64,000 bases of DNA, from the NCBI GenBank assembly GCA_040757835.1, contig JBFLWJ010000008.1:58464-122463 (forward strand), read 5' to 3'. This document shows, piece after piece, positions 7,699 to 64,000 of this stretch (position 1 is the first letter of the stretch; every line of letters begins with the position of its first letter). Source of the DNA: Actinomycetota bacterium. Its GTDB lineage: Bacteria > Actinomycetota > Geothermincolia > Geothermincolales > RBG-13-55-18. Under the pieces are notes generated by a model that saw only the letters and a program-made list of their open reading frames with translations, was not told where the DNA came from and ran no database searches. The translations under genes and the position numbers were made by a program.

Positions 7699-9384
7699 AT
7701 GATCTCGGAAGGCGCTTATCAGGAACTCGAGGAGGCCCTCGGCCCCGAGAACGTCTCGCGCGAGCCCGCCGTGCTCGACACCTACGCCTGGCAGGCCTTC
7801 ACCGAGGTGGTGGGCGAGACCAGCGGCTGGACCCCCAACCGCCCCGCCGCCGTCGCGCTTCCCGGCAGCACCGCCGAGGTGCAGGAGGTGGTGCGCATCT
7901 GCGGCAGGCACGGCCTGCAGTTCAAGGCCATGTGCACGGGTTGGGGCGTCTGGAACATGGTCGGCGGCAAGGACGTGGTCCAGCTGGACCTGCGCCGCAT
8001 GGACCGCATCCTCGAGATAGACGAGAAGAACATGTACGCGGTGGTGGAGCCCTACGCCATCGGCGCGCAGCTGCAGGCCGAGGCGATGAAGCTGGGGCTC
8101 AACTGCCATATAATCGGGGCCGGCTCCGGCACCTCGCCCCTGGCCAGCGCCACCTCGCTGTGCGGCTACGGGTGGTCGGGACTGACCACCTCCTACAGCG
8201 CCCGCACCCTGCTGGCCACCGAGTGGGTGCTCCCCGACGGCGAGCTGTTGCGGATAGGGACGGTGGGGTCCGATCTCGCGTGGTCCTGCGGCGACGGCCC
8301 GGGGCCAAGCCTGCGCGGCATCGCCAGGGGATATATCGGCAACTGCGGCGGCCTGGGCGTCTTCACCGCCTGCGCGATCAAGCTCTTCCCGTGGCCCGGG
8401 CCACCGGAGCCCGCGGTTAAGGGCACCCTGCTGGACTCCTTCACCGAGGTCCCAGGCACCGGTGCCATGTTCATCTGTGCCTTTCCATCCTTCGAGTCCT
8501 ATAGTGAGGCGGCGTACCGGCTGGGCAACGCCGAGGTCGGGTACATGCACTGCAAGGTCGCCGTCGGCGCTTTTCTCTCCACCATGGTGCCCCGGCTCAT
8601 GGGCAGGATAGTGGCGTATCCCGCCATGAAAGCGGCCCTGCTCACGCAGCAGCACATGTTCGTCTTTCTCATCAACGCGTACTCCCGCGAGGAGTTCGAC
8701 TACCAGGAGAAGGTACTGAAACAGGCCGTGGCGGAGACCGGGGGGATATGCCTCGACCTCCGTGCCATGCCCTCCATGCATGCCGCCATGTGGTGGGGGT
8801 TTGTCCGGGCGTCCCTCCCGCCCCTCATCTTCCGGCGGGGAGGCAGTTTCGGCACCTCTTTCGGGGCGCTGGAGGCCTGGGACCACCCAGTTTTGCAGGC
8901 GAAGATAGCGGCGGAGCTGAAACAGAGCTTCATCGACCAGGGAAAGCTCATCGACGACCTGGCCGACAACGCCTGGGGGGGCATCTACGAGGGCAGTACC
9001 TGCTTCGGCCACCAGGAGGAGCTCTACCTCTACGACCCGCGCGACCCCGCCATGATGGCCAGCGCCACCGAGTACCTGGCCGGTACCTTCATGGCCACGG
9101 TCGGCCACAACCTGGGACCGGGCCTGGGCTTCGCCCTGGGCAACATCGGGGCCGAGCTCTTCGGCCCCATCATCGGCGGCTACCACCACCGCCTGCGCGA
9201 GGTGAAGCAGTCCTTTGACCCCGACGACGTCAGCGACGCCGGGTTCTACATCTCCCTGGACCCGGTGAAGACGATAAGGGAGACCATCGCCAGGCAGCCG
9301 GAGATGGCCCAGTTCCTCGCCCCCCGCCTGGAGGAACTAGGCCTTGAGAGCGAGGGGAAAGGGGTGGGCGAGGATGACGGTTGA
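7699..9384 (+). CDS. FAD-binding oxidoreductase (FAD-linked oxidase, PCMH/GlcD-like)
   Basis: 561 aa with an N-terminal FAD-binding PCMH-type region (PGSTAEVQEVVRICGRHGLQFKAMCTGWG) and a large C-terminal substrate domain. Confidence 0.6.
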   Translation: MISEGAYQELEEALGPENVSREPAVLDTYAWQAFTEVVGETSGWTPNRPAAVALPGSTAEVQEVVRICGRHGLQFKAMCTGWGVWNMVGGKDVVQLDLRRMDRILEIDEKNMYAVVEPYAIGAQLQAEAMKLGLNCHIIGAGSGTSPLASATSLCGYGWSGLTTSYSARTLLATEWVLPDGELLRIGTVGSDLAWSCGDGPGPSLRGIARGYIGNCGGLGVFTACAIKLFPWPGPPEPAVKGTLLDSFTEVPGTGAMFICAFPSFESYSEAAYRLGNAEVGYMHCKVAVGAFLSTMVPRLMGRIVAYPAMKAALLTQQHMFVFLINAYSREEFDYQEKVLKQAVAETGGICLDLRAMPSMHAAMWWGFVRASLPPLIFRRGGSFGTSFGALEAWDHPVLQAKIAAELKQSFIDQGKLIDDLADNAWGGIYEGSTCFGHQEELYLYDPRDPAMMASATEYLAGTFMATVGHNLGPGLGFALGNIGAELFGPIIGGYHHRLREVKQSFDPDDVSDAGFYISLDPVKTIRETIARQPEMAQFLAPRLEELGLESEGKGVGEDDG

Positions 9385-52208: not shown

Positions 52209-53399
52209 GTGAGGGAGACCGAGATAGTCAATACTTCCACCCCGGACGGCCCCTTCAAGGTAGGGGTAAGGACCGAGTGGCTGGAGTTCGAGGGACGCGA
52301 CCTGCGCGTGGTCATCTGGTATCCCGCCCGGGAGGTGGAGAAAGCCGAGCCCCATGTATTCCGGAGCGATGATCTGGGATCCGCGGTGAGAGGGTCGGCG
52401 GTGCTGGAGGCCCCGCCCGACAGGTCGGGCGCGCCCTACCCCATGATACTCTACTCGCCGGCCCTGACCGCTCCCGCGGACGCCTCGGTATTCTATACCC
52501 AGAACCTGGCTAGCCACGGCTATGTCGTCGCCGCCGTCGATCACCTGGATGCAAACCACTTGGACCTGGTCGTCCGGGACGGGAACTGGAAAAACCTCCT
52601 CCGATACTTTCCGAGGATGTTCAAAGAGTTCGTCACCGGCGATCCGAGCGTAACGGTCCTCGTGATGTTCAGCGGCCATTTTCGCAGTACCGAGTTCGGG
52701 CTGAAATACCGGCCGCATGAGGCGAGGCTGGCGATCGACAATGCCGCTATATGGAACGGGGACGCCTCATCGCCGCTGTACGGCATGATCGACCTCGATA
52801 CAATAGGCATGACCGGTCATTCCCTCGGGGCGTGGACCACCCTCCTACTCGGGGGCATGTCCCTCAAGTACGACGAGAGCTTATGTGCCGGCGACTCCGA
52901 TATCAACAGTGGGTGCATCGCCGATCATGACCCCGTCTGCACCCGGTCCGCCAGATCCCTTGAGAGCCCCTACGCGCTGCGGGACGAAAGGATCAAGGCG
53001 ATACTCCCCATGGCTTCGCCGATCTTCCACCACGATGCGCCGGATAACGCAAGGGAGATCAAGGTACCGTTGATGTTCCTTACCGGCGATGATAAGAGAT
53101 GGGAAGCCACTTTCTACCGCCAGAAAGAGGTGTACGACAGCGCGCCAGGCCCCAAACATTTCGTGGTCATCCGGGACACCGATCACTATGTGATCTGCGA
53201 CATGTGGCTGAAATCCCGCGTTATCCTTGCTAGATTCCGGCTACCCAAATTCAAGCAGAATTTCCAGGAGAAGGCCCAGGCTTACAAGGATTACTCAGTG
53301 GCTTTTTTCGATCTCTATCTCAAGGGCGATGACAGTAGAGCGGACGTCCTGCAAGCGCCGAACCAACCTCTTGTAAAACAGGTATGGAGCGAGATATGA
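52209..53399 (+). CDS. alpha/beta-hydrolase fold enzyme (PAF-acetylhydrolase/dienelactone-hydrolase-like)
   Basis: GHSLG nucleophile elbow (IGMTGHSLGAWTT). GTG start after AGGAGAGG. Confidence 0.6.
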   Translation: MRETEIVNTSTPDGPFKVGVRTEWLEFEGRDLRVVIWYPAREVEKAEPHVFRSDDLGSAVRGSAVLEAPPDRSGAPYPMILYSPALTAPADASVFYTQNLASHGYVVAAVDHLDANHLDLVVRDGNWKNLLRYFPRMFKEFVTGDPSVTVLVMFSGHFRSTEFGLKYRPHEARLAIDNAAIWNGDASSPLYGMIDLDTIGMTGHSLGAWTTLLLGGMSLKYDESLCAGDSDINSGCIADHDPVCTRSARSLESPYALRDERIKAILPMASPIFHHDAPDNAREIKVPLMFLTGDDKRWEATFYRQKEVYDSAPGPKHFVVIRDTDHYVICDMWLKSRVILARFRLPKFKQNFQEKAQAYKDYSVAFFDLYLKGDDSRADVLQAPNQPLVKQVWSEI

Positions 53400-53526
53400 A
53401 ACACCTGAAGGAGGGGGATGCCCTCATCCACATCCTCTATGAAGTGGAGCAAGCGGCGGCAGGCCGTATAGATTATATGCCGTGGGACCGTCTTTATCTA
53501 TGCGTCTGGCTTCAGTGGCTATATAT

Positions 53527-53697
53527 GGCCCGTCCTGCCCGAAAGGCGGTGTGCTTCACGGGTACCCTTGTTGCATGTGGCCTCTCTTCTTGTCAGATGC
53601 AGCTCTTGAGCTGGTAATTCAAGGATGATCTGCTGGATGTCGTCAGCATCCTGAAATGACGGGATTGCCCACTGTGTTTAAAACGTGCCCATTTTCG
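53527..53697 (+). repeat. intergenic repeat family copy B
   Basis: box1 ggcccgtcctgcccgaaaggcggtgtgctt (identical to copy A). box2 cactgtgtttaaaacgtgcccattttcg lies about 127 bp downstream. Confidence 0.75.
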
Positions 53698-53786
53698 ATG
53701 GCCAACCTGGCCGGCCTGACAGTCATATAGAATTGGTATAATTATCGCAGAGCGGAGAGCAAAGTAATCGATGGGTAAGAAAGCAT

Positions 53787-53918
53787 GGAGATCAACGACC
53801 TGGTTCATGATTATTTCAACGTTGATGCCGATGAAGTATGGTCGACCGTGGAGAAGGATCTGCCTGCCCTCAAGGCCGACATACTCACCATCCTAAGGGA
53901 TATTGAAGCTTGACAATT
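53787..53918 (+). CDS. possible 43-aa acidic small protein
   Basis: ATG preceded by AAGAAAG. Translation MEINDLVHDYFNVDADEVWSTVEKDLPALKADILTILRDIEA. It lies downstream of an extended -10 promoter (TGGTATAAT near 53735). Too short for the ORF track. Confidence 0.25.
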
Positions 53919-54030
53919 CTCACGCAATCCAATGCAACTGCATGAATATAGTTACTGGTAGAACGAACTTGGATTTCGTTGGAAACGCCAATGCGGTGGC
54001 TGCCTAAAAACCGAAAAAGGAGGTTCGGCG

Positions 54031-54243
54031 ATGCCTGAATCAAGCAATTGTCCCAAGTGCGGCGGGGCTATGATCCCGGGGTCGCTCAAAGAGCGAACGT
54101 TATATGGTCCCTCTCCATACCAGTGGGTTCCATCAGATGATGCTCCTTTCCCCATGAAGGGAGCTCCAAGCAATCGACATGATATCTCGATATATCGTTG
54201 TGAGGATTGTGGATACCTGGAATTATATGCAATATCCGGCTGA
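54031..54243 (+). CDS. 70-aa zinc-ribbon protein
   Basis: Strong RBS AAAAAGGAGG. CPKCGG...CEDCG tetra-Cys ribbon. Confidence 0.5.
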   Translation: MPESSNCPKCGGAMIPGSLKERTLYGPSPYQWVPSDDAPFPMKGAPSNRHDISIYRCEDCGYLELYAISG

Positions 54244-54295
54244 TATAAATGACTTGTCTGGTTCTCTATGACGAGTAGATCAGAAGACTCACATG

Positions 54296-54458
54296 CCTCG
54301 AAAGGCGCTGTGCTTGGCAAAATATCTGGCGGAACGGTGTTCTTTGCTCTCCGCCTATGTATATCTTAAGCGGCGTTTTTTCGGCTAAAGGCTGCAAAAT
54401 ACATAGGAGCTTGGAAACCGCCCGATTCCCGGCTGTGTCCAGATTGTGCCTATTTTCT
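54296..54458 (+). repeat. intergenic repeat family copy C
   Basis: box1 cctcgaaaggcgctgtgctt and box2 gctgtgtccagattgtgcctattttct. TGTCCA-N18-ATAATT forms a plausible sigma70 promoter about 100 bp upstream of the AbiEi start. Confidence 0.7.
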
Positions 54459-54555
54459 GATAATTGCTGAGTGTCCAAGATATTCGGATAAGAACCTTTA
54501 CAAAACATGTCTTTATAGCTAATATTATTAATTATAAAAGCATGATACGTAAAGG

Positions 54556-55371
54556 ATGAAAGAGATGGTTGTCAATGAGTTCCTGGAACGGCACCCGGTG
54601 TTCACCCTTACAGAGTTCAAGGCTTTCCTGGATGAGAACGCATCGGTGAACAAGTGGACGCAGCAAAACCTCCTCGCATATTACAAGAAGAAAGGGAGAA
54701 TACTCGGGGTCAAGCGGGGGCTTTACGCCGTGGTACCCCTAGGCATGGAGCCGGACAGCTTCCTTCCCGATCCATTCCTTCTTGCGGCCAAGATGGCGGA
54801 GGATGCAGTGCTCTCATATCATACGGCCCTGGAATTCTACGGTTCTGCCTATTCCGTTCACAATCGCTTCATATACTTGTCTGGGGTTCAGAGAAAAGAA
54901 CTATCCTGGAGGGGATACGTTTTTAGAAGCGTCCCCTTCCCGGGAGCCCTGCTCAAGAAGAGGAAAGAGTCGTTCGGTATAAATGCAGAAGACCGAAGGG
55001 GTCTTGGAGTGAAGGTCACGGGCTTGGAGCGCACCATGGTCGACGTTTTCGACCGGCCCGACCTCGGGGGCGGCTGGGAAGAGATATGGCGCAGCCTGGA
55101 CCTCGTGGACTATCTGAAACTGGAAGAGGTGGTGAGGTACGCCCTGCTCCTCGACAACTCCACGACGGTGGCAAAAGTCGGCTTCTACTTAGAGCAGAAC
55201 AAGGAACGCCTGATGGTGGATGACTCGCATCTCGATCGCCTGAGGAAAAAGATGCCCCTTTCCCCCCGCAAAATGGAGCGCACAGGAAGCCAGCCCGGCA
55301 AATTCGTATCCGCTTGGAACCTGGCAGTTCCCAGGCCAGTTTACGAAAAGGTATGGGAGGAGGTCACATGA
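54556..55371 (+). CDS. abiEi: AbiEi-family type IV toxin-antitoxin system antitoxin (transcriptional regulator domain)
   Basis: N-terminal AbiEi_4-like winged helix (VFTLTEFKAFL...GRILGVKRGLYAVVP). 271 aa. Overlaps the downstream gene by ATGA. Confidence 0.7.
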   Translation: MKEMVVNEFLERHPVFTLTEFKAFLDENASVNKWTQQNLLAYYKKKGRILGVKRGLYAVVPLGMEPDSFLPDPFLLAAKMAEDAVLSYHTALEFYGSAYSVHNRFIYLSGVQRKELSWRGYVFRSVPFPGALLKKRKESFGINAEDRRGLGVKVTGLERTMVDVFDRPDLGGGWEEIWRSLDLVDYLKLEEVVRYALLLDNSTTVAKVGFYLEQNKERLMVDDSHLDRLRKKMPLSPRKMERTGSQPGKFVSAWNLAVPRPVYEKVWEEVT

Positions 55372-56336
55372 TCCTTTCCCGGGAAGGGCTTGCGCGGGCG
55401 GTGGCCTCGAGCGGCTTCCGCGAGGATTACCTGGAGAAGAGCATCAGGTTGCTGTATCTCCTGGAGGCGATCAAGGATAATCCGTTCCTGAGATCGAGAT
55501 TGGTTTTAAAGGGAGGAACGGCACTGAACCTCTTTATCATGGAACTGCCCCGCCTTTCCGTGGACATCGACCTCAATTACATCGGCTCTCCGGAAAGGGG
55601 GGTCATGCTGGAGGAACGGCCCCTGGTCGAACGCACCCTCCAGGCTATCTGCGGCCGCGAGGGATTCCGGGTGAGGCGCATACCAAGCGATCATGCGGGA
55701 GGTAAGTGGTTATTGAGGTTTGATAGCACGCTGGGGAGAGGAGGCTCTCTCGAACTCGACATCAACTTCCTTATGAGAATCCCTCTTTGGGATCCAAATA
55801 CTATTGATTCTCAAGCCCTAGGCGATCATCAAGTAGGTGGCATCGCTGTACTGGACAAACATGAGCTTATGGCGGGTAAAGCCGTTGCCCTGCTGTCGCG
55901 CAGGGCGGCCCGTGACCTCTTCGATTGCCATGGGTTGCCAAGAGCCCTATCCCTTGTTGCCGACAAGCTGCGTCTGGCCTTTGTCGTAAATGGAGGCATG
56001 AGCCGGAGGGATTGGCGCGATGTATCGCTTGACGACATAGGATACGACATCAATGAATTGCATAACGTTCTCCTGCCCACTCTCCGCAATGATTATGCAT
56101 CGGGTATCAAGGATGTCAGTTCTTGGGCAGACCGCCTGGTGCTCGAGTGCCGGGAAGAGCTTTCGGTCCTCTTGCCCTTGCGAGCGAACGAGGTCGATTT
56201 TCTCACGTCTTTGAACGAGGAAGGAGAGATACTCCCAGGGCTGCTGACATCAGATAAATATCTGGCACGTAAGATCGAGAGGCAACCTGGGTTGCTCTGG
56301 AAGGCTCAAAATGTCAAGGAATACAGAAGAACATAG
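55368..56336 (+). CDS. abiEii: AbiEii/AbiGii-family nucleotidyltransferase toxin (DUF1814)
   Basis: Hallmark LKGGTALNLF...RLSVDIDLNY nucleotidyltransferase motif. 322 aa. Confidence 0.8.
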   Translation: MILSREGLARAVASSGFREDYLEKSIRLLYLLEAIKDNPFLRSRLVLKGGTALNLFIMELPRLSVDIDLNYIGSPERGVMLEERPLVERTLQAICGREGFRVRRIPSDHAGGKWLLRFDSTLGRGGSLELDINFLMRIPLWDPNTIDSQALGDHQVGGIAVLDKHELMAGKAVALLSRRAARDLFDCHGLPRALSLVADKLRLAFVVNGGMSRRDWRDVSLDDIGYDINELHNVLLPTLRNDYASGIKDVSSWADRLVLECREELSVLLPLRANEVDFLTSLNEEGEILPGLLTSDKYLARKIERQPGLLWKAQNVKEYRRT

Positions 56337-56449
56337 TTGCTCAACACAAAATGTACCCTCACTTTATCTGTTCTCGAGATATAATTCACTGCGCATCGTG
56401 AATATAATACGATATGGTAATATATGTTAAGCTCGTGCACCTCGAAAGG

Positions 56450-56602
56450 CGTTGTGCTTACCCACCAATCCTGCGAATCCAATAATTGTAGGCACCACAA
56501 ACACATGCTTTTAGCTGGGACAATATGTCCGTTGTGACCTATTCCGTTTTTTTCTCGAAAAGTGTGATTTGCCCTGCTGTGTCCATATTGTGCCCATTTT
56601 CG
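56450..56602 (+). repeat. intergenic repeat family copy D
   Basis: box1 cctcgaaaggcgttgtgctt and box2 gctgtgtccatattgtgcccattttcg. TGTCCA-N17-TATATT forms a promoter-like element upstream of qatA. Confidence 0.7.
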
Positions 56603-56762
56603 TATATTTGGGCATTTACTAGGTACTCTTGTGGATTAATTGCGCTAATTGCCTATCTGACACCTGAATCAATGGTGTGCTTTCAGCACCACAGATGTAT
56701 CCTATACTCTGTAGAAGGGGTTGTAGAATACTGTAAAACCTATTTTACATGAGGGGGATGCT

Positions 56763-58562
56763 ATGTGGCCTGATAATGAGACGTCGATCGACCTTCTAGG
56801 CTTTGAACATCTTGTCGATGCACTTGAAATTGTGCTGACAGACTCGAAATTGCTCCCTGTGACAGTGGGCGTAGTTGGTGACTGGGGGTCTGGAAAAACG
56901 AGCCTAATACGGATGGCTGAGGAAAAGCTCAAGCAGATTCCCGGAATCGTAACTGTATCTTTTAATCCTTGGCGTTTTGAGGGTTACGATGATATGAAAG
57001 CTGCTTTGATGTCGGCAGTTATTTCTGAAATTGAAAGGAAAATTGAGGATAACCCTACCGTATTCGAAAAAGTCGCTAGAGGCTTGAAAAGACTTGCGCG
57101 AATAATCGGTTTAGTTCGAGCAGCACCTATAGCTGCTGCAGCACTTGCCTCTGCAGCGCACGCCCCAACTGCTGTGGCGTTAATGTTAGGCGAAATGGCT
57201 GGAGCAGTTGCCGAAGCAGCTACAGAGGAAAAGGAAGATGAAGATACGGAATTAGTATTATCTATCGCTGAATTCCATCAGGAGTTCGAGCGAATAATGA
57301 AAGAATTGGGCGACGAAGTTGAAGCAGTCATCGTTTTTGTAGATGATCTCGATCGCTGTTTGCCAGAAACGATCATTAATACTTTCGAGGCCATCCGATT
57401 GTTCCTCCATGTTAACAAGACTGCATATGTAATTGCAGCCCACCCAAGGATAGTGGAGGCGGCAATTGAAGCTAGATACATTGACAACAGACGCGGGGAT
57501 GAGAATCTAGGGCGCGACTATTTAGAAAAGATCTTCCAAATGACAATAACGGTGCCAGCGCTTTCGGAACCAGAAGTTGAAAGCTATATTAACTTACTTC
57601 TGTCTGAGCAATATCTGGAGAGAGAAGAGTTAGACAAACTGCGTGAGGAAGCTAGTAAGCGGCGGCGTGAGGGCCAATTCGGTGTAGTAATGAACTATGG
57701 AATCGCAAGTGGGATAATTGGAGGCTCAAAGGAACTCGATTCTGACTTTGCTCTAGCAAATCAAATTGCGCCCGTGCTTGCTAGGGGTTTACGCGGAAAT
57801 CCACGGCAGATTAAAAGATTCCTCAATACATTTATGCTACGACGGCGTACTGCGGAGCGGCGGGGTATAGACTTGGACCCTGCAATTTTGGCGAAATTAA
57901 TGATACTTGAGTTAAATCTGGAAGAGTTTAAGCAACTCTTCTTATGGCAGCTTGTGCAGGATGGTCAACCCAACGAACTGGTTGAAGCGGAGGAAAAAGC
58001 GCGCTCGAATGCTATACAGGAACTAGAAGGAGAAGTCGCAACTTGGGCAGCCAGACCCAATGTGTTGGAATGGTTGTGTCTTGATCCACCTCTAGCCGAT
58101 TTACCGCTAGGTAGATATTTCTATTTCTCCCGCGACAGACTATCTCCGGCTGCTCCTGCAGCAAGATTATCAGCTGCTCTACAGGAACTCCTGGCACGGC
58201 TACAAGTTGATTCAGACGCACTACGTCGGGCTGCCATCAATGAAGCAGTAAGTCTGCCGAGGGAGCAAATTGTTCAGGTCTTCGATGCTCTTCTTGAGAA
58301 GGCAATTCGTAAGCCAGAGGGACCTGCAATGGATAGCAGCTTGGAACTCGCGGCGAAACAACAAACGCTCATTGATGATTTTGCTAATGCACTTGAAAGA
58401 ATCCCTGTCGCGAGCGTACCAATTCATCTGCCCTTGAAAATCCGATTAACTTTCGGGGATCAGAATCCACGTCTCGAAGCAGTATTAGATTCTTGGGATA
58501 AATGCGGGTCTGGGGATCTAAGAAATGCTATTGTCCAAGCCCGAAGCAAGGGAGATACGTAA
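56763..58562 (+). CDS. qatA: QatA, KAP-family P-loop NTPase of the QatABCD anti-phage system
   Basis: Walker A GVVGDWGSGKTSLI and KAP-type Walker B VIVFVDDLDRCLPE. 599 aa. It is the first gene of a four-gene translationally coupled operon. Confidence 0.8.
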   Translation: MWPDNETSIDLLGFEHLVDALEIVLTDSKLLPVTVGVVGDWGSGKTSLIRMAEEKLKQIPGIVTVSFNPWRFEGYDDMKAALMSAVISEIERKIEDNPTVFEKVARGLKRLARIIGLVRAAPIAAAALASAAHAPTAVALMLGEMAGAVAEAATEEKEDEDTELVLSIAEFHQEFERIMKELGDEVEAVIVFVDDLDRCLPETIINTFEAIRLFLHVNKTAYVIAAHPRIVEAAIEARYIDNRRGDENLGRDYLEKIFQMTITVPALSEPEVESYINLLLSEQYLEREELDKLREEASKRRREGQFGVVMNYGIASGIIGGSKELDSDFALANQIAPVLARGLRGNPRQIKRFLNTFMLRRRTAERRGIDLDPAILAKLMILELNLEEFKQLFLWQLVQDGQPNELVEAEEKARSNAIQELEGEVATWAARPNVLEWLCLDPPLADLPLGRYFYFSRDRLSPAAPAARLSAALQELLARLQVDSDALRRAAINEAVSLPREQIVQVFDALLEKAIRKPEGPAMDSSLELAAKQQTLIDDFANALERIPVASVPIHLPLKIRLTFGDQNPRLEAVLDSWDKCGSGDLRNAIVQARSKGDT

Positions 58563-59266
58563 TGGGAACATCGTCTGATTATTCCGGATCAACTGGAGGC
58601 CCTTGGACTCGTTTCAAACGAGCGGCAACAGATTTCGCGAAATACGGCGGTGAGGAACGTGCCCGTCGCGTTATGGCTCGCCACGTTGCCACATTAGGTG
58701 GCGCAAGAAGAGCGTCAGAATCTGCAAAAGCTGGCATATCAACTGCTCAGAGATTAGGCGAGGCATTAACAAGGCTTGGGACATTAGGATTAGATGCAAC
58801 ATTACAATCATATAATCTTGATTACTTGATCGGCAAAGACAGATTCGATGTTCTGCAAGCCCTTATTGAAATAATTGCTCCGCCAGGTACAGATCTAGAA
58901 AGTGAAGCAGCCCGCAATGCAGCTTTAGATGTTATTGAAGAAGTATTCGGCGAGGGTAATTCTTATGAAGATTTGTCGTCTACTCAGTTTGACCACGATG
59001 GGCTTGTCAATGCATTAGAGTTGTTTATTGCAGCATATGTCTATAACCGGGCCATTCCACTTATCGAAAAGCGGCTTAGCGAGTTAAGTGCAGGCGAGGC
59101 TGATAATCGTGATAAAGCTCTACATATCTTCATTAAACAACTTGTCAGGCTGAGGTTAAAAGACATGGATCCTTTGCAGATAGACTGGAAGGGGACAGAA
59201 GGTCATAGCATTATCCAACGGCTAATCCGTGGCTTATATAGCCAATTGGAATCTTGGGATGAATGA
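58562..59266 (+). CDS. qatB: QatB (unknown-function component of QatABCD)
   Basis: 235-aa ORF overlapping the qatA stop (TAATG) and the qatC start (ATGA). Its position and size match QatB. Confidence 0.55.
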   Translation: MGTSSDYSGSTGGPWTRFKRAATDFAKYGGEERARRVMARHVATLGGARRASESAKAGISTAQRLGEALTRLGTLGLDATLQSYNLDYLIGKDRFDVLQALIEIIAPPGTDLESEAARNAALDVIEEVFGEGNSYEDLSSTQFDHDGLVNALELFIAAYVYNRAIPLIEKRLSELSAGEADNRDKALHIFIKQLVRLRLKDMDPLQIDWKGTEGHSIIQRLIRGLYSQLESWDE

Positions 59267-60585
59267 CAATGCTATTCCAGCTAAGGATTCACTTAGATGA
59301 GCCGATTGAGACGGAATCAGTCGTGCTTGATTGGTCAAGAACACAAGGGACGATTGATTATAAGGGTGCGCTCTTTGATCGACTGCACCAACCTTCTATG
59401 GCATTGGACCTCCTACGATTTGGAGCGGTAGTGCATTGCGCCGACAAGTTAACTTCTCGTGAGGCCACGGAAAACGGATGGGAGCGTGAGATTTCCTTGA
59501 GTATCCCGGCGATGGACCCTGTCCAATGGCAATCTGCCACAGACACATTGACCGAGGCCCTTTGCTTTCTAAGCGGAGATCGATGGAGTTTGAGGTTTAG
59601 GGAGAGTTGCGAACAAGAGTCAGGAGCTCGAGTTCGCCAATCTTGTGATGCTATCTGCCTTTTTTCTGGAGGGCTTGATTCGCTTGCTGGTGCAATTGAT
59701 CTCTTGGAGGATGGCTTATCAGTGTGTCTTGTTGGTCATTACGACACCGGTCTTACACATGGCAGGCAACTTGAACTTGCCGAAGAACTTGGGAATCACT
59801 ATGGCAACAAGAAAGTGACCCTATTGCAGGTCTTCTTGCGTCCCTCGCCAAGAAGGGATAATCAGGTAGAGCCATTACCCCATGTAACCGAGAAAAGTAC
59901 AAGGGCGCGCTCATTTCTATTTATTGCGATGGGTCTTGCAGTTGCGAACACAATTGGTGATTCAATTCCCTTGTATGTTCCTGAAAATGGATTTATTGGC
60001 ATTAACGTTCCTTTAACGGCGGCCCGAAGGGGTAGTCTAAGCACGAGAACCACCCATCCATTCTTTCTGAGACGCCTTGAAGATGCATTTGCCCAGCTGG
60101 GAATTATGAACACAATCCGAAACCCTTATCGATTAAAGTCTAAAGGAGAGGTAATTGCTGAAAGTCGGAATCGAGGTCTCTTAGCTCGGCTTGCTCCGAG
60201 AACTATTTCATGTGCACATCCAGAAGCATCGAGATTTTCTGGCCAACCACAGGGCAACTGTGGCTATTGTTACCCTTGTCTTATCCGTCGTGCTTCGTTG
60301 CATCACGCTCATCTCGATTCTGCTGAGGGATATGCATATGATGTCCTTTCTGAACAAGGATTCGTTAGCTCCCAAAGTAGTCGGCCTTCTACACTTAAGG
60401 CTGTTATGAGAAACCTATCCAGGACATATAAATGGAGTGATGTGCTTCGGAACGGTCCAATACCCGGAAATGAACGTATTGAGTTCGAGGGGGTATTTCG
60501 TCGCGGGCAAGAGGAGCTGCGTGAGTGGCTACTTAGCTCACCTGAAAATAGCCTTAGAAGGCTACTTCCCGAGAGCATGCCATGA
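59263..60585 (+). CDS. qatC: QatC, QueC-like PP-loop ATPase
   Basis: PP-loop ICLFSGGLDSLAGA and C-terminal zinc motif CAHPE...CGYCYPCLIRR as in QueC. 440 aa. Confidence 0.8.
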   Translation: MTMLFQLRIHLDEPIETESVVLDWSRTQGTIDYKGALFDRLHQPSMALDLLRFGAVVHCADKLTSREATENGWEREISLSIPAMDPVQWQSATDTLTEALCFLSGDRWSLRFRESCEQESGARVRQSCDAICLFSGGLDSLAGAIDLLEDGLSVCLVGHYDTGLTHGRQLELAEELGNHYGNKKVTLLQVFLRPSPRRDNQVEPLPHVTEKSTRARSFLFIAMGLAVANTIGDSIPLYVPENGFIGINVPLTAARRGSLSTRTTHPFFLRRLEDAFAQLGIMNTIRNPYRLKSKGEVIAESRNRGLLARLAPRTISCAHPEASRFSGQPQGNCGYCYPCLIRRASLHHAHLDSAEGYAYDVLSEQGFVSSQSSRPSTLKAVMRNLSRTYKWSDVLRNGPIPGNERIEFEGVFRRGQEELREWLLSSPENSLRRLLPESMP

Positions 60586-61346
60586 TGGAATATCTTGATA
60601 CTCATTGCCATATAACGAAATATCGTCAGCCGCTACGTATTATAGAGAGTGCAGAAGAGAGCAAGGTTGGCATTATTGCAGTGACTGAGCTTCCGAGCGA
60701 ATTTAGAGCATTGGTGTTGAAGTTGGGTTCAAGGCCAGGAGCAATGCCAGCTTTGGGGTTGCACCCTTTGCTTGCTAAGAAGGCTTCACCTATTGAAATG
60801 AGCCTTTTTAAACACATGCTAGCTAGAACAAAGTTTGTAGGAGAGGTTGGACTTGACTTCTCACAGCAAGACATTTCTACGCGAAGACGCCAGATAGAAG
60901 TATTTGAAGCGATACTAATGCAACCTGGAATACAAGAGAAAATCCTAACAGTGCACTCTAGGCGAGCTGAGACGGAAACAATTGATTACATTATCCAGTC
61001 TCATGTCGCAGCCGTATTGCATTGGTACTCAGGCCCTGTTAAGTACATAGAGCGTGCACTTGATGCCGGCATCTATTTTTCAATAAATCTAGCAATGATG
61101 CGAAGCTCTCATGGAAAGCGAGTTCTAGCTGCCGTGCCCCAAGATAAAATACTGCTTGAGACAGATGGGCCATACATTAATATCGGGCCAAGACCGATAG
61201 AGCCCAAGGATATTCCATCGGTAGTCAACATGCTAACTAATTGTTGGGATTTGACACCAAAAGAAGTCTTAGAACAAGTCCGTAACAATATACTAGCGTT
61301 AAGAATGCGGGTGAAAACTGAAGACGAAATTGTAGATGACCCTTAA
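60582..61346 (+). CDS. qatD: QatD, TatD-family metal-dependent DNase
   Basis: TatD motifs DTHCH, GEVGLD, HSR and ETDGPY. 254 aa. Confidence 0.85.
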   Translation: MMEYLDTHCHITKYRQPLRIIESAEESKVGIIAVTELPSEFRALVLKLGSRPGAMPALGLHPLLAKKASPIEMSLFKHMLARTKFVGEVGLDFSQQDISTRRRQIEVFEAILMQPGIQEKILTVHSRRAETETIDYIIQSHVAAVLHWYSGPVKYIERALDAGIYFSINLAMMRSSHGKRVLAAVPQDKILLETDGPYINIGPRPIEPKDIPSVVNMLTNCWDLTPKEVLEQVRNNILALRMRVKTEDEIVDDP

Positions 61347-61356
61347 AGATATAGGG

Positions 61357-61877
61357 TTAATTCAAGGGAGAAGGAAAGCCATTTATATCTAGGATTGAAG
61401 GTGGGCTCTCTACCAAGGGATCTAAGCGGCTTGCTTGATCTGCTGCCCATTCGAGCCATCGCCCTAGTTCGCTATCGGCGTGAATCCCCCCATCAGTTTC
61501 TATCGCTTGCTGTCTGGCTGCATCGATGAAATCCCTGAGGATGTTGCTCTTGTGCCAGTTTTCGGCGAGCCCTATAAGACAATCCACGCGCATCCTCTCC
61601 CCTTCAACTAACTGCTGCTTCTCTTCCCAGAGGCGGTGTCGTTCCTGACTCTCCTTCTCTTCCAGTTCACGCTGGCGGGTTACGCCCACCAGAACCAGGC
61701 GATGTCGGGGTCGGTGAAGACAATGAAACGCTTGTGCTCCGAAAAATGCCCGCCCTGGAGTATCTCGATACGCCCGGGCTGCTTCACCACGCGGTGGTGG
61801 GGGAGGCCGGCTTCATTGTCGGGGTCTGAGTGGAGATATTTGGCCTGTACCAGGCCCACTTGGCCAAGCCTTATCAA
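61357..61877 (-). pseudogene. possible small gene downstream of the GHKL ATPase, apparently split by a frameshift (65-aa + 110-aa ORFs in different frames)
   Basis: Two minus-strand ORFs (61680..61877 and 61357..61689) abut near 61680-61689. The upstream one overlaps the ATPase stop (TTGA). Neither has a convincing RBS. Confidence 0.2.
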
Positions 61878-63871
61878 CTGGTACTGGCAATAAGCTCCAC
61901 CACCTTCTTGAGCTCAATTACAGGCAGAGAGTGGCCGTCCTCCACGCCTTTACGGGTGAGGATATGAGTCACCCCGAAAAGCTCCCGGCTGGCAACGACA
62001 CAGTCCTCCACGAGGTCCGCAAGGTCGAAGTTGCGACTCCACTTCCGGCCCACCTCCCAGACCACCACGAGCGCCAAGCTCTCGAACTTCTTGGGCGAGT
62101 GGCAGTCCGTTACCTCCTCGATGAGGCTGTCCAGGTTGACCTTGAACTCCAGCATGGCCGGGGGGTACCGCACCTCATCACGGCGGGCAAACGCGGCCGG
62201 GGACAAGCCCAGGGGGTTCGCTTTAGGTTCGTAGAGCGCCTTGGGGTGGTCCTTCTTCAGCTGGAATCCGAACACCCCGTCATAGGTAGCGGAGTGATAG
62301 GCACCATATAGGTCGTAACCGACAAGCTCCCCTTTCCCGCATAGCTCGGAGAAAAGCCATATCACCTCGGGCTCGTGCTGGGGTAGTGAGCGCAGGCCAT
62401 ATCCTCCGCCCAGGGGCGTCTTCTCCGCCCGCGCTTCGGCCTCCCTTATCCTCTGGTGTTGGGCCATTTTGTCGGCGGCCTGGGATGCCTGGACGCCGGC
62501 GGGCTTGAGGTGCTTCCGCCGGGCCACGTAGTAGCGGATGAGCGCATCCCCGAGCTTTTTTATCTCGTCAACGAGGTCGGGGTTGAAGCCCTTCCTTCCC
62601 AGGTCGGGCCTGACATCCGCAAGCTGCACCAGCATGAAGAAGCGGTCCTCGTTGCCGGCGGCATAACCCAGCTCCAGGGGTATCGGCTCTCCCACCACGG
62701 CGTTGTGGGCGACCACCCATGCCCCCGGCTTGATGGCCTTCAGCGACTTATCCCCCACCTCCAGCTCACTAAGCAGTTGAAAAAGGCCTGCCGAGAAGGC
62801 GAAGAAGGAATATGCAGCTTCGAGGTCCTTTCTGAGGATGGGAAAGTCATTCCTGTTCAGGATGCCCCGCTGGGGGTGGAATAGCTGGTTCTTGGTCCAT
62901 ATCCTGTACAGGGCATCCTGGTTCAGGTGCTTCGTCGCTACCGGAGAGCCCTCCTGGTGCTCCTGGTAGTAGCGGCCAAGGTCCAGGTAGTTGAAGGTGC
63001 CGATGGTGTGGGGCAGCGGGTAGCTGAAGGGTATCTCCCAAGAAGCCGTAGACCCCGCTCCGTCCATGAGGATAAGGTTCACTCTGACCTGCCTGTTCCA
63101 CCGCTCCCTGCGCAGCAGGTCCACGAAGCCTATGGCGGTCTTAGTGCGCAGGATAGCCTCCCACTTCTTCGGGGTCACCCCCAGGTGGGAGAGGGCTGCC
63201 GGCCGGGTTCCATCACCCAAGCGCAAGGTGACTGCTGTGCCCCTGCCGAGCTGGTTGAATATATTGCAGGTCTCCACCGCCGGGCGCGCTGCCGGTTGCT
63301 TCTGGCTCCCGTCTCCCATGGCCCAGCTCCGGCCGCCAGTAACCTCGAAGGAGAGGAAGCCGTCCTCTCCCATGGTAGAGACCCTGATATAGTCAGTGGC
63401 ATGTGCGAGGAAGGTAGCGCCCACCCCAATGTGACCCCGCAGGATCAAGCCCAGGTCGCTTGCCACCCGCTGCTTCAGGCTCAGGTTGGGAACCAGGATC
63501 TGCATGAGCTCGGTCTTCGTGAGCCCGAGCCCACTATCCACTACGGTCACCTCATTATCTCTGAGGTTGAGGATAAGCCAGATCTCGGGCTCTTCGGCGA
63601 ACTCGATATCCTCGCCCGACCAGATAAGTTTCACCCGGTGCTCCAGGGCATCGACGGCGTTCTGCGTGGCCTCGATGAAGAGGTCGTAGCTTCCCTGGTA
63701 GCTGTTCAGGATGTTCCTGACCGTCGCCCGTTTTAGAGCCTCCTCATCGGGCATCAGGTTCCAGAAGCCGAAGTGGTCGAAGGGCTTGGTTATGCCATTG
63801 GCCCGGGACCTCCTCGACCCTCTGGGCATGGGGACAACCGTCCCCAACAATAGGTTTGTGTTGCCGTTCAT
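61874..63871 (-). CDS. GHKL/Bergerat-fold ATPase (HATPase_c, MORC/Hsp90/MutL-like N-domain) with long uncharacterised C-terminal region
   Basis: Motif I FIEATQNAVDALEHR, motif II VVDSGLGLT and motif III GHIGVGATF. Start ATG at 63871 preceded by AAGGAGG. 665 aa. Convergent on qatD. Confidence 0.65.
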   Translation of the reverse strand: MNGNTNLLLGTVVPMPRGSRRSRANGITKPFDHFGFWNLMPDEEALKRATVRNILNSYQGSYDLFIEATQNAVDALEHRVKLIWSGEDIEFAEEPEIWLILNLRDNEVTVVDSGLGLTKTELMQILVPNLSLKQRVASDLGLILRGHIGVGATFLAHATDYIRVSTMGEDGFLSFEVTGGRSWAMGDGSQKQPAARPAVETCNIFNQLGRGTAVTLRLGDGTRPAALSHLGVTPKKWEAILRTKTAIGFVDLLRRERWNRQVRVNLILMDGAGSTASWEIPFSYPLPHTIGTFNYLDLGRYYQEHQEGSPVATKHLNQDALYRIWTKNQLFHPQRGILNRNDFPILRKDLEAAYSFFAFSAGLFQLLSELEVGDKSLKAIKPGAWVVAHNAVVGEPIPLELGYAAGNEDRFFMLVQLADVRPDLGRKGFNPDLVDEIKKLGDALIRYYVARRKHLKPAGVQASQAADKMAQHQRIREAEARAEKTPLGGGYGLRSLPQHEPEVIWLFSELCGKGELVGYDLYGAYHSATYDGVFGFQLKKDHPKALYEPKANPLGLSPAAFARRDEVRYPPAMLEFKVNLDSLIEEVTDCHSPKKFESLALVVVWEVGRKWSRNFDLADLVEDCVVASRELFGVTHILTRKGVEDGHSLPVIELKKVVELIASTS

Positions 63872-64000
63872 GGCAACCTCCTTTCGGTCGTTCCCCATTA
63901 AGGGGAATGGTTTACGGATAAACTTGTGGCGGCCTCACGGGAGACCGCCACCTCGAGACAGGCATCCCTTCCTGCCTGGTGGCGCCCTGCCCCGATATGG

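Follow-up and report, generated by a model that had tools for sequence, protein, structure and literature searches.

A GHKL ATPase with a probable C-terminal nuclease domain and a predicted RxPP leader next to QatABCD in an Actinomycetota bacterium

The GHKL gene and its product

Our analysis concerns a gene near the end of a 64,000-nucleotide stretch of DNA from an Actinomycetota bacterium (assembly GCA_040757835.1, contig JBFLWJ010000008.1, positions 58,464 to 122,463 of the forward strand), the whole of which is called the window here. The gene lies on the minus strand next to a set of QatABCD genes and encodes a GHKL-type ATPase. In the list of open reading frames (ORFs), the minus strand is unbroken over 61874..63898, corresponding to 674 amino acids (aa). 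Two in-frame ATG codons could begin the gene. The upstream one, at 63898, would give the 674-aa form and falls within a small hairpin, and the second, at 63871, gives 665 aa and is spaced 6 nucleotides (nt) from an AGGAGG. Because of this spacing, and because the N-termini of homologues coincide with the second ATG in alignments, that codon is likely the start of the gene. The length of 665 aa and the separate ribosome-binding site (RBS) proposed in the initial annotation both agree with this choice. An exact look-up found neither the 674-aa nor the 665-aa product among recorded proteins. Residue numbers given below are those of the 674-aa form, from which 9 is subtracted to obtain those of the 665-aa form.

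The window protein carries the three Bergerat motifs as E76-x3-N80-x2-D83, D121-S-G-L-G125 and G155-H-I-G-V-G160. Among 86-99 full-length family members, E76, N80 and D83 of the first motif, D121, G123 and G125 of the second and G155, G158 and G160 of the third are invariant or at least 95% conserved. A phmmer search of Protein Data Bank (PDB) sequences matched aa 62-193 to the Hsp90 N domain (E 2.5e-5), a profile of 12 family sequences gave a GHKL/Hsp90-type match among PDB sequences at E 5.8e-6, and Pfam HATPase_c_3 was matched by 60 of 67 diverse relatives. The window protein alone fell below all curated thresholds of Pfam, PADLOC and NCBIfam, and NCBIfam models applied to the family returned only sub-threshold matches to Hsp90, sacsin and TopoVI-B. 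These three are also the nearest neighbours by profile and fold, rather than MORC or MutL. Judged by its motifs, the protein belongs to the GHKL/Bergerat ATPases. The initial annotation had read a GHKL ATPase from the same three motifs; these do align in a profile search, and the phmmer, profile, Foldseek and Pfam results agree.

An AlphaFold2 model was built from the family alignment (mean predicted local distance difference test score, pLDDT, 75). It aligns with full-length Hsp90 structures over approximately 470 columns that take in both the N and the middle domain (Foldseek E 3.7e-14, template modelling score ~0.4). A loop of the middle domain, D432-L-G434-R435-K436, is invariant in the family members compared above, and by analogy with R380 of Hsp90 and the lysine of MutL/GyrB, R435/K436 may include a candidate gamma-phosphate-sensing basic residue. 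When modelled separately, the last 178 residues gave a pLDDT of 93 and a predicted template modelling score of 0.90, with secondary-structure elements in the order alpha-beta-beta-beta-alpha-beta. E509 lies on the first helix, D540 at the start of a strand and E584-x-K586 in the next strand; these residues and K603 are invariant in the same members. The invariant set is the E-D-ExK signature of restriction-endonuclease-fold nucleases, and the order of secondary-structure elements also fits. The C-terminal domain is accordingly modelled as a probable PD-(D/E)xK (restriction-endonuclease-fold) nuclease, an assignment that is well motivated by signature and model rather than by a demonstrated fold match. 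A profile search of PDB sequences with this domain was empty. A link to NOV_C/DUF3883 was not found by hhalign against the NOV_C protein of locus L006, where the single-sequence template makes for a weak test. The region of about 450 aa that the initial annotation had left unassigned is thereby resolved, by structure prediction, into an Hsp90-like middle domain and a probable nuclease domain.

Table 1 Features of the locus, with positions in the window, and leader peptides of the homologous loci (L numbers)
Feature	Position	Strand	Basis or sequence
Coding sequence of the GHKL ATPase and probable nuclease, 665 aa plus stop	61874..63871	minus	full-length alignment to 13 homologues, 27-78% identity
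GHKL (Bergerat) ATP-binding domain, ~aa 52-260	63119..63745	minus	E76, N80, D83, D121xGxG125, G155xxGxG160; searches and fold
Hsp90-like middle (transducer) domain, ~aa 261-496	62411..63118	minus	Foldseek to Hsp90 N and middle domains
C-terminal domain, aa 497-674	61877..62410	minus	AlphaFold2 model; invariant E509, D540, E584-x-K586, K603
Shine-Dalgarno AGGAGG of the GHKL gene	63877..63882	minus	sequence; kept in all leaders
Small hairpin UUCCCC-UUAAU-GGGGAA	63891..63907	minus	CCC/GGG core in 7/7 aligned leaders, loop and flanks variable
Hairpin T, GC-rich, 11 bp, terminator-like	63926..63951	minus	GUGGCGGUCUC-CCGU-GAGGCCGCCAC; -20 to -26 kcal/mol
Hairpin AT, long, antiterminator-like	63941..63988	minus	-21 to -34 kcal/mol in 7/7 leaders
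Leader ORF, 3' part (start beyond the window)	63935..64000	minus	...PYRGRAPPGRKGCLSRGGGLP, stop; RAPP codons 63977-63988, stop TGA 63935-63937
Leader peptide, L001			MADRQIGLAAVPRRGRSPPGGP, stop; RSPP
Leader peptide, L093			MVGRIRLAIMPCRGRSPPGMLACVS, stop; RSPP
Leader peptide, L005			MCSFICVSVPCRSRAPPGRHRCLSQGGGLA, stop; RAPP
Leader peptide, L009			MYSFICVSVPCRSRAPPGRRR, stop; RAPP
Leader peptide, L010			(M)LDSQQPIERPPPR, stop; RPPP
Leader peptide, L002			MVKGPLKRGPPW, stop; RGPP
Leader peptide, L094			...GFPPSGRSPPG...; RSPP
65-aa TTG-start ORF, probably no gene	61680..61877	minus	no homologue, no family match
110-aa ORF, remnant or short form of an unrelated family	61357..61689	minus	tblastn to P0014 residues 178-273
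QatABCD	56763..61346		PADLOC QatA-D models in order, E 1.5e-96, 1.9e-17, 4.8e-106, 2.7e-58
AbiEi-like antitoxin (271 aa) overlapping AbiEii nucleotidyltransferase toxin (340 aa)	54556-56336	plus	Pfam AbiEii E 3.9e-24

The upstream cassette and its leader

The conserved companions of the GHKL genes lie upstream and consist of an XRE repressor gene and a leader. This is the arrangement of the close clade, by which we mean the relatives at loci L001, L002, L005, L009, L010, L093 and L094 (40-78% identity to the window protein). A divergent gene for an XRE/HTH_3 protein of 102-115 aa is located 180-350 bp upstream of the GHKL gene in 7/7 of these loci, and the seven XRE proteins are colinear homologues with 29-72% identity to the L001 protein. 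The intergenic regions share one plan, in which a TTGACA-17-TATAAT-like promoter is followed by a palindrome, an RBS with a short ORF, a structured region rich in GC, then the small hairpin and finally the RBS that serves the GHKL gene. Of this arrangement the final 130 nt fall within the window, with the leader of approximately 130 nt partly visible at 63872-64000. The hairpin recognised in the initial annotation is present and is one element of this larger conserved leader. Perfect palindromes of 19-23 bp, specific to each locus, stand directly after the TATAAT-like box (L001 698-720; L005 2327-2347; L009 1147-1165; L010 5971-5993), and these are likely operators that co-vary with their own XRE proteins.

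A covariance model made from seven leaders scored the window copy at 141 bits and recovered the copies of L002-L004 (one L002 locus on three contigs), on which it had not been trained, at the expected place with 22.9 bits and E 0.015. The model had no match among 76 distant loci or in the remainder of the 64-kb window, and no Rfam family matches the leader. The pattern CCACCAGG...GTGGCGGYCTC was matched 120 times in metagenomes and 40 times in viral sequences, all by chance and none with the second hairpin arm; a stricter leader pattern had no match in viral contigs.

The short ORF of the leader encodes an RxPP motif in 8/8 loci (the close clade and the window), as RAPP in three, RSPP in three, RGPP in one and RPPP in one. 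Wherever that part of the leader is visible, an RBS and a start codon precede the ORF at a suitable distance, and the six complete copies encode 12-30 aa. At L094 (2612-2750) no stop codon separates the RSPP leader ORF from the GHKL start, towards which it continues in frame; a natural fusion of the leader with the GHKL gene or an error in the assembly could explain this. Among the upstream regions of the wider family, R.PP was encountered in 13/76, of which 12 were judged by eye to be chance and the thirteenth, L013, is the close-clade Geothermincola locus L001. RAPP and RGPP are known as ribosome-arrest motifs refractory to EF-P (PMC12992588, PMC10951233). Ser or Pro at position x allows arrest in part, and random-library screens recovered RxPP motifs in which x was G, A, S or P (PMC12992588). 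The leader ORF is predicted on this basis to encode an RxPP ribosome-arrest peptide, with the arrest itself predicted from the motif.

Two further hairpins, here named T and AT, are predicted in the leader and are tied to the RxPP codons. The 5' arm of AT is formed by the RxPP codons themselves (AGG-xCG-CCA-CC; AGG-GCG-CCA-CC for the RAPP of the window), and its 3' arm (GGUGGCGGUCUC in the window, GGUGGCGGCCUC in general) doubles as the 5' arm of T. Because this segment is shared, AT and T would be mutually exclusive, and such a hairpin pair is predicted in 8/8 loci. T is paired in 100% of cells of seven leaders, with one compensatory change from G-C to A-U and three wobble changes. The most distant member, L002, has the same topology with other arm sequences, and its AT 5' arm lies just past the leader stop, within a ribosome footprint. 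A ribosome halted with the P and A sites occupied by the two Pro codons would cover approximately 15 nt downstream, which is the entire 5' half of AT. A canonical U-tract after T was observed only in L010 (CUUUUUAUC) and L002 (UUCUCUCUUUG).

The leader resembles two kinds of known regulators. With trp-type leader attenuators and the msrD leader (PMC10314930) it shares a translated leader and two exclusive hairpins, one of them terminator-like; it differs from them in that the stall is expected to be intrinsic to RxPP rather than dependent on an amino acid or a drug, with a predicted logic in which the stall means off. With the RAPP/RGPP peptides ApdA, ApdP, ApcA and CruR (PMC10951233, PMC12992588) it shares a short upstream ORF, an RxPP near the C-terminus and a stall placed to remodel the downstream mRNA. 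Those peptides are mostly secretory or membrane peptides that sense Sec/YidC or metal status and unmask an RBS. The GHKL leader peptide, in contrast, would be too short at 12-30 aa to exit the tunnel before the stall, shows no evident signal sequence on inspection by eye alone, and is combined with a terminator/antiterminator pair and a downstream candidate immune nuclease. Upstream ORFs with RAPP/RGPP precede genes of varied function, with defence, restriction and toxin genes unmentioned there (PMC12992588), and a full-text search that combined arrest peptides with anti-phage terms found no precedent within a limited set of literature. Within that limited literature, an arrest-peptide switch before a GHKL-nuclease gene was apparently not previously reported.

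The family, its neighbours and related systems

A word-indexed search found 13 relatives of the window protein, and a profile-driven search of the same kind added no homologues. An exhaustive profile search returned 1909 cluster representatives at E<=0.001, of which 901 remained at 1e-10 and 404 at 1e-30. The family comprises at least 404 clusters, defined at 50% identity, at E<1e-30. Most of the relatives among the matches listed are 620-690 aa long and align from end to end. A pattern-limited scan of a set with one genome per species recovered 151 relatives. Relatives occur in Actinomycetota, Chloroflexota, Acidobacteriota, Pseudomonadota, Bacteroidota, Cyanobacteriota, Bacillota, Planctomycetota and Patescibacteria and in a Methanolinea archaeon; 9 further relatives are on viral or prophage contigs, and three plasmid homologues are annotated 'hypothetical protein'.

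The neighbourhoods of these genes vary. Of 76 loci with an intact gene, the most frequent neighbouring gene family is present in five, and those five are related Chloroflexota. Neighbours in the scanned loci include restriction enzymes, restriction-modification (R-M) systems, MADS, PARIS, Gabija, AbiL, AbiEii, HepT/MNT, integrases and excisionases. The close-clade loci are hosted by integrative elements, with genes for integrase, excisionase-like HTH_17 and Replic_Relax. In its phyletic and neighbourhood profile the GHKL gene resembles a laterally mobile stand-alone gene. The initial annotation had proposed that homologue neighbourhoods be compared, and this comparison describes a family that is patchy over phyla and often found on integrative elements or near defence genes.

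In the Chloroflexota subclade (L036, L043, L056, L062 and L071; about 7890-8900), a conserved gene of ~300 aa stands directly 3' of the GHKL gene, with a gap of at most 6 nt or an overlap. Four or five of all the neighbour genes scanned match CfrBI-type restriction enzymes. The ~300-aa downstream gene of L043 has no Pfam match, and there the pair sits between genes for a fumarase and a solute-binding protein. At L093 (5338-7152), the closest homologue (78% identity) is shortened to 383 aa, with a HepT/MNT toxin-antitoxin pair behind it; the flanks carry an N6_N4 methylase, a ResIII helicase and AbiEii, and the XRE gene and the full leader are retained. This arrangement suggests the decay of a costly gene within a defence island.

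Among described systems, the protein can be compared with paraMORC3, Shedu, Hsp90/HtpG and Tiamat. ParaMORC3 has been described as GHKL plus S5 plus a C-terminal restriction-endonuclease fold with E-D-ExK, often stand-alone and of sporadic spread (Iyer, Abhiman and Aravind 2008, PMC2292703). The window family likewise combines GHKL, a middle domain with a conserved basic residue and E-D-ExK, has no conserved neighbourhood and is sporadic in bacteria and archaea. This comparison with paraMORC3 is by description only, and the GHKL and middle parts of the window protein are nearest to Hsp90 and sacsin by fold and profile. Gu et al. (bioRxiv 10.1101/2023.08.10.552793) list homologues of Shedu in which a GHKL fold is combined with an Hsp90-like middle domain. 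One Shedu type I-D protein, VcSduA of Vibrio cholerae, protects against T1-like phages and requires E27 and K557 (Adams et al., PMC12137116). VcSduA and the window protein are alike in that a single protein has an N-terminal GHKL domain, an Hsp90-like middle and a C-terminal PD-(D/E)xK-type motif, and the catalytic Glu and the nuclease Lys are 510 aa apart in the window protein vs 530 aa in VcSduA (E27 of the ATPase, K557 of the nuclease). Shedu is defined by DUF4263, however, and DUF4263 matches 0/67 full-length family members (E<=0.01) and 0/24 isolated C-terminal domains (E<=10). The PADLOC SduA model matched 0/67 members, and no Shedu structure was among the best 50 of 127 matches listed in the fold search with the C-terminal domain. 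An XRE partner and a leader peptide are unmentioned for VcSduA in PMC12137116 and Gu et al.

The likeness to Hsp90/HtpG extends over the N ATPase and middle domains by fold and over the N domain by sequence. The window protein differs in that it has no Hsp90 C-terminal dimerisation domain, its last 180 aa forming another domain, and in that it is not a core-genome gene. An HtpG paralogue was rejected on a score of 18.1 bits with NCBIfam NF003555 (cut-off 371) and an alignment confined to aa 78-135; the housekeeping HtpG, MutL or gyrase-like protein in core-genome context that the initial annotation had considered is not what was found. Tiamat TmtA, a sacsin-like GHKL defence protein, shares the sacsin/Hsp90-type GHKL motifs I-II, and 24/67 members match the TmtA model weakly. 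Membership in TmtA was likewise rejected: the matches are confined to ~70 aa, where the profiles have 1538-1782 positions, and the window protein itself gives no match. The initial annotation had been unable to name a system. By architecture the protein can be placed as paraMORC3 / VcSduA-type, though it fails the Shedu sequence models, and it is possibly a member of a sister branch of the GHKL-nuclease single-gene defence design.

In the window itself, the QatABCD neighbour named in the initial annotation was confirmed and the placement of the GHKL gene inside the same island became doubtful. A block of low GC content at 53400-61350 (0.46-0.55) carries AbiE and QatABCD, the latter at 0.46, against a backbone of 0.64; the GHKL gene has 0.61. 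Given the difference between 0.61 and the 0.46-0.55 of the block, the GHKL cassette adjoins the Qat island and does not belong to it, having been either acquired separately or resident already, so that what had appeared as one island is a mosaic that combines at least two acquisitions. The AbiEi/AbiEii genes, a type IV toxin-antitoxin or abortive-infection pair, stand just upstream of QatABCD. The left edge of the low-GC block is occupied by a 70-aa zinc-ribbon ORF on the plus strand (54031-54243; DUF6487 match, E 1.6e-6). The last gene of backbone GC content before the island, also on the plus strand, is a 396-aa ORF at 52209-53399 with weak matches to PAF-acetylhydrolase / PETase-like hydrolases.

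Proposed function and its alternatives

Because of its architecture, its phyletic pattern and the precedent of VcSduA, we lean towards a role in defence for the GHKL-nuclease, in support of the suggestion made in the initial annotation. It would be a stand-alone immune effector that joins an ATP-driven GHKL clamp and a nuclease in one polypeptide, controlled by a cassette of XRE gene and RxPP leader. We infer this, together with every other function given below for the enzyme and its leader. If it behaves like VcSduA and other GHKL enzymes, the protein would dimerise via its ATPase domains, and binding and hydrolysis of ATP would open and close the clamp and so license the C-terminal nuclease to cut invading DNA. 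Expression would be held at two layers, the first being the divergent XRE-family repressor with its locus-specific palindrome just past the promoter and the second the leader of ~130 nt that encodes the RxPP peptide. With a ribosome halted at RAPP, the 5' arm of AT would be covered, the shared segment would fold into T, and the nuclease gene would be off. When leader translation fails or lags, as in a takeover by phage, AT would form and transcription would read through into the gene. This direction, with the stall as off, is the one that the hairpin arrangement would predict. The leader may instead act on translation or RNA stability rather than on termination. That it serves as a surveillance switch for translation, inducing the GHKL-nuclease when host translation is disabled or diverted by a phage or a toxin, is put forward only tentatively.

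Several observations weigh against this picture. In the ATPase domain, motif II carries N122S, where Ser replaces an Asn that is ~90% conserved in the family, and motif III (GHKGVG in the family) carries K157I, where Ile replaces a 98%-conserved Lys that is Leu in the closest relative; given both changes, ATP handling may be altered in the window protein or its subclade. For the C-terminal domain, a Foldseek search of PDB and BFVD found nothing significant (the best relevant matches being a DUF4365 protein at E 0.67, MspJI at 0.9 and an Mrr domain at 1.0), and among the models of Pfam, PADLOC and NCBIfam none extends over it. Many distant family members are surrounded by housekeeping genes. 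The XRE gene and promoter of the window copy would lie beyond base 64000, their presence being presumed from the seven homologous loci. As to the leader, the tail after T in the window is AAGUUUAUCC, with no canonical U-tract, and a terminator scan of 61300-64000 called none, as the window T fails the rule of the tool, which leaves transcription termination at this hairpin uncertain. The covariation in T was reached by 38 of 500 shuffles, and 7-8 related leaders make for weak statistics. Lastly, the CCACCA codons are possibly kept for RNA pairing and not for the peptide.

This last point leads to an alternative for the leader, which may possibly be a structured RNA switch or a protein-binding site (a riboswitch or operator-like RNA) with the RxPP 'peptide' as a by-product of GC-rich pairing. 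It is consistent with the position of the RxPP codons in one hairpin arm, with nucleotides that are conserved as well as the peptide, and with a leader stop that varies in position. The well-spaced RBS and start codon of every locus argue for translation instead, as does the confinement of x to G, A, S and P, the arrest-permissive set (PMC12992588). L002 retains RGPP though its hairpin arms have moved off those codons, and in L093 a synonymous Ser codon retains Ser while weakening the pairing; the lack of an Rfam match also speaks against an RNA switch.

For the gene as a whole, it is rather improbable that the cassette is an addiction or toxin module, in which a GHKL-nuclease silenced by XRE and leader would stabilise the element or exclude competitors and would not be anti-phage. 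The integrase, HTH_17 and Replic_Relax genes around the close-clade loci would suit such a module, and so would the tight multi-layer control and the cutting of the closest homologue to 383 aa, as expected of a costly gene. The XRE partner and the leader are missing, however, from most of the wider family, and VcSduA, the sole tested protein of this architecture, defends directly and without host killing (PMC12137116). More improbable again is an accessory motor, like MORC or paraMORC, for an unlinked R-M or DNA-repair system whose methylases, helicases and endonucleases would be encoded elsewhere. ParaMORCs have been placed mainly in R-M operons (Iyer et al., PMC2292703), methylase or restriction genes lie near some of our loci, and the Chloroflexota subclade has its adjacent ~300-aa gene, and CfrBI-type matches occur among the neighbours scanned; against this stand a candidate nuclease that is built in and the retention of no partner in more than 5/76 loci.

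The least credible proposal, a two-gene system with a frameshifted small downstream partner as suggested in the initial annotation, is already contradicted: the 4-nt overlap of the GHKL stop with the 65-aa TTG-start ORF is present as described, but neither that ORF nor the 110-aa ORF that follows in another frame was found downstream of any GHKL homologue in the loci examined, and DNA similarity to the closest relatives ends at the GHKL stop codon. The 65-aa ORF is without a homologue or a family match in Pfam, PADLOC and NCBIfam and has no likeness to the DNA 3' of any GHKL relative. A merged query of both ORFs matched two proteins, P0014 (281 aa) and P0015 (116 aa), each by the 110-aa part only, and the frameshifted unit was dropped since only that part has homologues, to the C-terminus of an unrelated 281-aa protein. 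By tblastn, window positions 61387-61674 correspond to residues 178-273 of P0014, and the first 177 residues have no counterpart in the window, where that space is taken by the end of the GHKL gene. P0014 is encoded at L011, in a TIR/SLATT island that lacks a GHKL gene and where a GmrSD_N gene lies next to it. Since P0015 has 116 aa, the 110-aa ORF could be a short form rather than a remnant, but no RBS is evident. Members of the P0014-type family (61387-61674; L011 6001-6846) share a strongly conserved tail, W(L/V)EWAxxQAxRLDPLVESPPS(I/V)LD, behind a charged coiled-coil-like stretch. At L011 the P0014-type gene comes after a 113-aa gene and a GmrSD_N (DUF262) gene, within an island that also has a QueC-like gene.

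If the GHKL-nuclease is the stand-alone effector that we favour, a large unnamed branch of at least 404 clusters at 50% identity would be added to the GHKL-plus-nuclease single-gene defence design, of which VcSduA is the only tested member, and a dedicated model would expose this branch to defence-finding tools. The control cassette is the more interesting part, as it bears on how costly immune nucleases are silenced and then released. Should the tentative surveillance switch hold, it would be the first arrest-peptide-gated defence gene and a non-secretory use of RAPP arrest, tied to transcription attenuation instead of the unmasking of an RBS. A working switch would tie the state of the translation machinery directly to the expression of an immune gene, and the reach of RAPP arrest peptides would then extend past genes of protein localisation and metal homeostasis.

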